Shown here piece after piece: positions 55,815 through 56,150 of a stretch of DNA of 64,000 nucleotides. The position numbers and the translations under genes are program-made. The notes beneath the pieces were generated by a model, which saw nothing but the letters and a program-made list of their open reading frames with translations, did no database searches and was not told the DNA's origin. How positions within the stretch are numbered: position 1 is the stretch's first letter; each line of letters begins with the position of its first letter. The stretch comes from Eledone cirrhosa (lineage: Eukaryota), in contig OZ024745.1 of assembly GCA_964016885.1 (NCBI GenBank), forward strand, positions 26,536,001 to 26,600,000, read 5' to 3'.

Positions 55815-55820
<6 letters not shown>

Positions 55821-56145
55821 GTGAGGTCTTTTTTACAAAATGAAAAATAACCGAGGTGTCCTACACGAGTGAAAGTATAAAGAAAAAGAGATGAAATCGA
55901 AAATGCAACTGAAGTCTTATTTTTTTTTAAAATATATATATTTATTTGGTTCCTTTATCGGTTTCGCAGTTCTTCTGCTTTTCAAAAGGTGAGTTGAGAT
56001 GGAGGGTCTGTGGACCACAGACCCTCCATCTCAACTCACCTTTTGAAAAGCAGAAGAACTGCGAAACCGATAAAGGAACCAAATAAATATATATATTTAA
56101 AAAAAAAATAAGACTTCAGTTGCATTTTCGATTTCATCTCTTTTT

Positions 56146-56150
<5 letters not shown>
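55815..56150. mobile_element. Family B foldback element, copy 2 (tail on left)
   Basis: ~135 bp arms centred on 56014, ~63 nt tail, (TA)n flanks. Confidence 0.85.
56039..56076 (+). ncRNA. Minimal type I HHR, U3-A8 variant (mirror copy on minus strand in the left arm)
   Basis: CCTT-TTGAAAA-GCAG aagaa CTGC-GAAA-CCGA-TA-AAGG; AATAAA at 56082-56087. Confidence 0.7.

Follow-up and report, generated by a model that had tools for sequence, protein, structure and literature searches.

Penelope-like elements (PLEs) of the Neptune type, which are EN+, are described as having an inverted 5'-truncated copy and a tail on one side only, and the mechanism behind these structures was called open (Craig et al. 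2021, PMC8557442). For the inverted copies of PLEs, Arkhipova et al. proposed self-priming (PMC3846280). In vitro, the Poseidon element PAc of Anolis cuts and extends both strands of its target and is predicted to act as a dimer; the two internal sites where its reverse transcription starts delimit the tail (Frangieh et al. 2024, PMC11167929). The minimal hammerhead ribozymes of metazoan PLEs show U3-A8 covariation, a palindromic helix III, and low activity in vitro (Cervera and de la Pena 2014, PMC4209133).

We studied a 64,000-nt window of the Eledone cirrhosa genome (contig OZ024745.1, positions 26,536,001 to 26,600,000). A sequence-only reading of this window had reported two copies of a U3-A8 hammerhead, mirrored on both strands. 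It missed that these are the pseudo-LTR (pLTR) end of an autonomous PLE, and that their features had been published: positions 55815-56152 are a head-to-head stub of the pLTR of a young Neptune-type PLE (Table 1, copy 2). Neither the element nor its ribozyme variant is of a new kind; the U3-A8 core, the inverted 5' copy, and the one-sided tail are all in the literature. The family's value is as test material for the inverted ends and one-sided tails of PLEs. Across 114 paired insertions, the two arms come from the same source, are non-nested in 24 pairs, have one end of each class, and share a 5' stop at the likely transcription start, which fits the behavior of PAc in vitro. We did not find this comparison of arms with copies in print, in a search that covered mostly open literature and main texts (supplements may list the family or its hammerhead).

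Table 1. Features of the two family copies, in window coordinates.
Feature	Position	Strand	Description
Copy 2, whole	55815-56152		Head-to-head arms of 199 nt (-) and 139 nt (+), flanked by (TA)n
Copy 2, long arm	55815-56013	-	5'-truncated Neptune-type PLE pLTR with the long (tail) 3' end; identity to the pLTR in intact copies with RT and GIY-YIG, 95-98%
Copy 2, tail	55815-55875	-	61 nt, on one arm only
Copy 2, hammerhead of long arm	55952-55989	-	U3-A8 minimal type I; CCGA variant (55958); helix III palindrome broken
Copy 2, arm junction	56013-56014		Blunt, head-to-head, ~13 nt short of the putative transcription start
Copy 2, short arm	56014-56152	+	Stops at the short 3' end, TCTTTATA into (TA)n
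Copy 2, hammerhead of short arm	56039-56076	+	U3-A8 minimal; CCGA variant (56070); stem I 56039-42/56073-76, core 56043-49, stem II 56050-62, helix III 56066-71; predicted cut after 56072
(TA)n target, left of copy 2	55751-55814		
(TA)n target, right of copy 2	56153-56180		
Copy 1, short arm	22047-22167	-	CCGG; TA subfamily variant; 3-bp stem I in the hammerhead (22122-22159)
Copy 1, long arm	22164-22336	+	Includes tail (22276-22336); hammerhead without the 5' strand of stem I
Copy 1, arm junction	22164-22167		4-nt TTGA overlap (microhomology) of the long and short arms

The hammerhead core has 10,850 exact 34-nt matches with CCGG and 100 with CCGA across the 3.0-Gb assembly, while the reversed control has 0, so these matches are not due to chance. 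The 30 best genomic relatives of the stub led to loci where the repeat comes after a GIY-YIG frame. A search with the N-terminal part of this frame gave 150 scored matches from 5,354 candidates, and many of them have an open frame of 775 amino acids. In all 20 of the loci with this frame that we examined, the pLTR repeat lies about 1 kb downstream of the frame, and in several it lies upstream as well. The frame matches both RVT_1 (E = 1.3e-6; its 28.7 bits are just below the Pfam cut-off of 29.6) and GIY-YIG (E = 3e-6), so reverse transcriptase (RT) and endonuclease are joined in one frame at 20 of 20 loci, as is expected of an EN+ PLE. At six loci (L088, L089, L092, L095, L096, and L100), the repeat is found both before and after the coding region, as a partial tandem. 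In full copies, the repeat runs past the long end into a 400-codon ORF1, whose ATG is 28 nt beyond the end of the tail, and ORF1 overlaps the RT frame (ORF2) in the -1 frame. The linker ahead of the Pfam GIY-YIG match, C-x4-C-x2-C, fits the CX2-5CxxC linker of Neptune. A PDB sequence search with ORF2 gave no match.

At L100 (ORF1 at 2842-4044, ORF2 from 3954), and also at L088, the overlap of the two frames spans the heptamer T TTT TTA, which we take to be a candidate slippery site for programmed frameshifting. Simple folding of the sequence downstream of the heptamer gave no strong structure.

The element resembles Neptune PLEs (PMC8557442) in having RT, the CX2-5CxxC linker, a C-terminal GIY-YIG domain, a pLTR, partial tandems, a 5'-truncated inverted copy, a tail on one end, (TA)n targets, and a hammerhead in the pLTR. 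It differs from them, as they are described in that article, in having a tail of 61 nt instead of 30-40 and a separate ORF1 that overlaps ORF2 in the -1 frame. The assignment to the Neptune type relies on the linker and the (TA)n target and is probable; Nematis also has the linker. We also considered that the stubs might be non-LTR retrozymes. Animal non-LTR retrozymes (bioRxiv 10.64898/2026.07.22.740005) are likewise small non-coding hammerhead copies related to the pLTRs of PLEs. Unlike retrozymes as that preprint presents them, the family has no head-to-tail arrays of non-coding monomers; its copies are single, or are head-to-head truncated ends of an autonomous coding element, so we rejected this classification.

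The same genome holds a second young PLE family (L298-L305) with many open copies. Its ORF2 also has 775 amino acids and is 49% identical. This sister family has the same promoter block, and its two TA-rich 3' ends are 54 nt apart. Its hammerhead has a C3-G8 core and a U-U pair closing stem II, and there is a similar T-run shortly after the start of ORF2.

Both arms of copy 2 read CCTT-TTGAAAA-GCAG-AAGAA-CTGC-GAA-ACCGAT-A-AAGG, which contains the core of the PLE minimal hammerheads (U/C3-U4-G5-A6-N7-A/G8-A9 ... G12-A13-A14-A15.1 ... U16.1-H17) along with stems I and II. The sequence-only reading had called this a U3-A8 hammerhead, and both the architecture and a covarying homologue support the call: at the same position, the sister family has C3-G8 in place of U3-A8, a different but fully paired stem I, and another helix III palindrome (AGTACT). 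These differences support a real hammerhead lineage. (A strict motif scan missed the sister family's hammerhead with its U-U closure. A scan of the window against Rfam found no family at gathering score, but such scans are uninformative for minimal hammerheads.) The CCTT stem I that had been described is complete in copy 2 only; the short arm of copy 1 has ACTT, and its long arm is truncated before stem I. The claim that the family is unrelated to the adjoining C3-G8 hammerhead family stands, with a best local score of only 16.

As in the PLE minimal hammerheads of PMC4209133, including the U3-A8 variant of Schistosoma Cercyon, the ribozyme is of type I with a short helix I and a palindromic helix III; most copies are solitary, and dual motifs lie on opposite strands about 100-700 bp apart. 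In contrast to the hammerheads described there, helix II has 4 bp, there is no extra base after A9, and copy 2 has a mismatch in helix III. The palindrome is ACCGGT in the family (10,850 matches) and ACCGAT in copy 2. The self-duplex energy is -8.3 kcal/mol for ACCGGU versus -1.3 kcal/mol for ACCGAU. Because CCGA breaks the palindrome that is needed for cleavage as a dimer, the ribozyme of copy 2 is predicted to be inactive. Nor does the mirroring yield a dimeric ribozyme, as the two motifs are on opposite strands. We considered a functional role for the mirrored ribozymes and rejected it: they are on opposite strands, the stub has no TATA box, and the motif would be buried in a hairpin of the read-through RNA (138 bp, -229.5 kcal/mol).

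Among 5' ends, the footprint of ribozyme cleavage is weak. The pattern for ends at the predicted cut site has 185 matches, versus 130 and 113 at two controls. Extrapolating from 30 classified loci each, we estimate about 111 true 5' ends at the cut site versus about 60 at one control, or roughly two-fold more, and the cut-site ends amount to about 1% of some 12,656 anchored arms. We infer that most cDNAs pass through the cut site, that most templates are uncut, and that the hammerhead is cargo of the copied stretch. In one copy (L192:1450-1530), a deletion bounded by the two strands of stem I has removed the entire core with stems II-III, as though RT had skipped over the folded motif.

The two copies in the window are, as had been claimed, in opposite orientations with common outer ends (TCTTTATA followed by (TA)n, and CTTTCTA followed by (TA)n) and with different junctions, a TTGA overlap in copy 1 versus a blunt joint in copy 2. 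The common ends turn out to be a rule of the family. The first 155 loci gave 213 distinct arms. The 3' end is at the long site in 116 of them and, 61 nt away, at the short site in 77; most of the remaining 20 are ends close to the short site, blurred by microsatellites or cut at the edges of the fetched sequence. Both sites are TA-rich spots within the element. By a strict test, (TA)n follows 69 of the 77 short ends and 97 of the 116 long ends, and 9 more long ends run into ORF1. In 285 loci, we found 121 divergent pairs, and 114 of them have one short and one long end. The remaining 7 are three tandems or separate insertions, two alignments that are likely broken, and two exceptions, one with two short ends (L204) and one that is ambiguous (L271).

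We also looked for the inverted structure in raw reads. The reads do not span the locus of copy 2, and the sole opposite-strand joint listed has one start per run, so it does not support the inverted structure; a second mapping gave opposite-strand joints at the contig level only.

CCGA is present on both arms of copy 2 and CCGG on both arms of copy 1, as had been noted. A second diagnostic site also agrees between arms (GACTTCAG in copy 2, GACTCCAG in copy 1), and the arms of copy 2 differ by 1 mismatch in 138 nt, which is sited in an A/T run. From these two copies it had been proposed that both arms were copied from the same template, or else were homogenised afterwards, and that arm-to-arm divergence should be compared with copy-to-copy divergence across the genome. 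In this comparison, divergence is 2.06% within pairs versus 3.73% between, and is lower within in 60 of 65 pairs. (We used 65 of 75 pairs; 7 were dropped for not having one end of each kind or for having under 60 common columns, and 3 had too few comparators.) The pairs were sampled by similarity or by exact pattern, for the most part within the first 37 Mb of a single contig, and haplotig duplicates may be among them. A common template is strongly supported genome-wide, both by this divergence and by sites that are polymorphic in the family: across the 114 pairs, only 16 of 413 comparisons at such sites are discordant, versus about 192 expected at random. (This count excludes the CCGA site and one linked site.) At single sites, 3 of 106 comparisons are discordant at site -98 (45 expected), 3 of 71 at site -175 (33 expected), and 0 of 26 at site -224 (11 expected).

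Could the arms have been different at first and have been made alike later, by hairpin repair, gene conversion, or assembly polishing? Seven private variants are common to both arms, as this explanation would have it, but 119 are on one arm only. The ratio of shared to single-arm variants is 3:50 in tight hairpins and 4:69 in spaced pairs, so there is no excess in tight hairpins, and pairs that are kilobases apart are as concordant as the rest. The low discordance, together with private variants that are mostly on one arm, indicates that the arms have a common source when they insert and from then on mostly mutate independently. Homogenisation or polishing after insertion accounts for little of the likeness between arms, and we consider it very improbable as the general explanation. 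Rare variants occur at rates of 1.07% and 1.79% in the paired stretches, where the lower value is biased by the exact-match anchor, versus 1.68% in the unpaired tail.

The CCGA variant itself is a weak marker of arm sharing. Only 9 of the 25 CCGA-bearing pairs are concordant, while 16 have CCGG on the opposite arm. Seven of the 9 matched pairs have one background in common, the pattern expected of a small source lineage. In favor of homogenisation, there are five close CCGA/CCGA pairs among the 100 CCGA matches, by a hand count, versus about 0.2 if the arms were independent; also, no other CCGA/CCGA pair shares the background of copy 2, whose closest relatives (L002 and L003) carry CCGG. However, the 16 mixed pairs, and the clustering of 7 of the 9 matched pairs as expected from a source sub-lineage, argue against it. 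For copy 2, a rare source or an early mutation that was copied to the other arm would fit equally well.

Linked sites are discordant in four pairs (L013, L026, L143, and L153), so a second template or patch conversion is involved at times. In L026 and L143, the arms differ at a linked two-base subfamily site, and the arms of L026 also share two rare variants; the pattern in L026 is likely due to a mosaic template or to patch conversion.

Many arms also share their 5' stop. Of 111 arms that were found by a 3' anchor, the 5' end was measured in 108, and 57 of these ends are at -220 to -195. Genome-wide, the pattern for ends in this region has 1,725 matches, while three other points give 113-185. 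In raw reads of three individuals from one study, loose ends occur at that same base. The distance from the TATA box to A(-212) is 30 nt, and the block GAGCCACTTTT...TATAAAA recurs in the sister family at a similar distance from the hammerhead core (72 versus 75 nt). These observations point to a putative transcription start near -212, about 212 nt before the long end. We also considered that -212 might be a splice acceptor, but splicing would add an upstream exon to the copy instead of ending it there, and a start site agrees better with the distance from the TATA box.

In fold-back or self-priming, the first cDNA (or an antisense template, as proposed in PMC3846280) would fold back and be copied to give the second arm. 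This would account for identical arms and for palindromic junctions such as CACATGTG, and it is compatible with the 90 pairs (of 114) whose short arm lies within the long arm or nearly matches its extent: the tail-less arm reaches less far 5' in 35 pairs, and the two arms are equal in 55. But in the other 24 pairs, the tail-less arm extends further 5' by more than 15 nt, and in four of them (L092, L101, L102, and L149) by over 900 nt. Neither arm contains the other in these 24 pairs, which argues against fold-back of a cDNA and for priming from both ends of the target. The non-nested pairs remain concordant (3 of 120 comparisons discordant versus 56.5 expected). Fold-back also leaves unexplained why both arms often stop at the same putative RNA 5' end, and we think it quite unlikely. 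Non-nested arms could also arise if, after insertion, a perfect palindrome lost part of its centre asymmetrically, but this is implausible for the kilobase-scale cases.

The stub is a promoterless, 5'-truncated, inverted pLTR insertion. We propose that a single source RNA was reverse transcribed twice to give its arms, with each cut end of the (TA)n target priming one of the two reactions. We consider this likely. The element would be transcribed from its TATA promoter, which would place the RNA 5' end some 212 nt ahead of the long end. Both strands of the (TA)n would be cut by the RT-endonuclease, which probably acts as a dimer. Each of the two sites, short and long, would then serve for one priming event, with the downstream RT displacing the upstream cDNA. 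At sites near the 5' end of the element's own mRNA, both cDNAs would run off the end of the RNA after about 150 and about 210 nt. The run-off cDNAs would then be joined head to head via microhomology, by blunt joining, or with a few added bases. (Among 94 junctions, 47 overlap, 31 of them by at least 2 nt; 18 are blunt; and 29 have an insert.)

This scheme resembles the twin priming of LINE-1, in which both target ends prime on one RNA and the cDNAs are joined head to head. In LINE-1, however, the two pieces cover adjacent parts of the RNA, whereas here they overlap almost fully and begin at two fixed sites. The proposal also resembles what PAc does in vitro (PMC11167929): both have two internal RT starts that bound the tail, AT-rich targets, cutting and extension of both strands, and uncut RNA as the main template. 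PAc belongs to another clade, and its RT start site was reported to lack homology with the DNA that is cut, whereas in our family both ends coincide with TA microhomology to the target. There is also no clear hairpin after either end in our family (we found only weak folds just behind them, of -3.4 and -0.9 kcal/mol).

One RNA and two RNAs from the same source locus would leave indistinguishable sequences, so we also considered that each arm might be copied from its own RNA, with pairing through the palindromic helix III, or a protein dimer, perhaps keeping the two RNAs together. This predicts the same concordance of arms, the same one-short-one-long ends, and the same non-nested arms, and no strand displacement is needed. 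Furthermore, ACCGGU self-pairs (-8.3 kcal/mol), and the mixed pairs L143 and L013, along with a sister-family fragment in L033, show that the enzyme can reach other RNAs. On the other hand, there are many intact sources, and random pairing of their RNAs should give about 192 discordances instead of 16, so strict pairing of RNAs from the same locus would be needed. Also, seven CCGA/CCGA pairs share a background, which suggests that their source made two-armed insertions without the palindrome. Copying from two RNAs seems unlikely to us, though less so than fold-back.

Priming twice on one RNA may have broader implications. We lean towards a general picture in which the Penelope RT, as a dimer, engages a single RNA twice, at two fixed positions 61 nt from each other, and one and the same stretch is copied from each side of a double-strand cut; near the 5' end of the element's own mRNA, this would mass-produce promoterless stubs of 150 and 210 nt. 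This single mechanism would account for pLTR inversion, for tails on one side only, and for the presence of solitary minimal hammerheads by the thousand in animal genomes, and would replace self-priming. In particular, the production of stubs suggests a reason why solitary minimal hammerheads are so abundant.

At L033 (positions 5545-6458; G000:C4:31281000-31288000), about 910 nt of a sister Neptune-type RT region lie between two arms of our family. This captured fragment suggests template switching to the RNA of another family.

Several other elements lie near the two copies. Directly left of copy 2, at 55214-55750 (and also at 54979-55051), is another inverted pair with microsatellite-rich arms, in which motif scans found no hammerhead. 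On the other side, at 56181-56275, a copy of the C3-G8 hammerhead family lies about 28 nt away in the same (TA)n, which cuts it off close to helix III. Immediately to the left of copy 1, perfect 79-bp inverted repeats (21600-21678 and 21950-22028) surround a 270-bp core; this could be a MITE-like element or another two-armed insertion. Elsewhere in the genome, L233 has two more unrelated hammerhead-like motifs with a U3-A8 core, so this variant may recur in other families. A general repeat finder run on the window gave output that was swamped by microsatellites. Motif scans flagged further hammerhead-like cores in the window at 53022 (-) and 5423 (-). Finally, at 33811-39516 and 42800-47030, the window has a family of units of about 190 nt in both orientations, along with large inverted arrays of short repeats whose lengths are multiples of 3.
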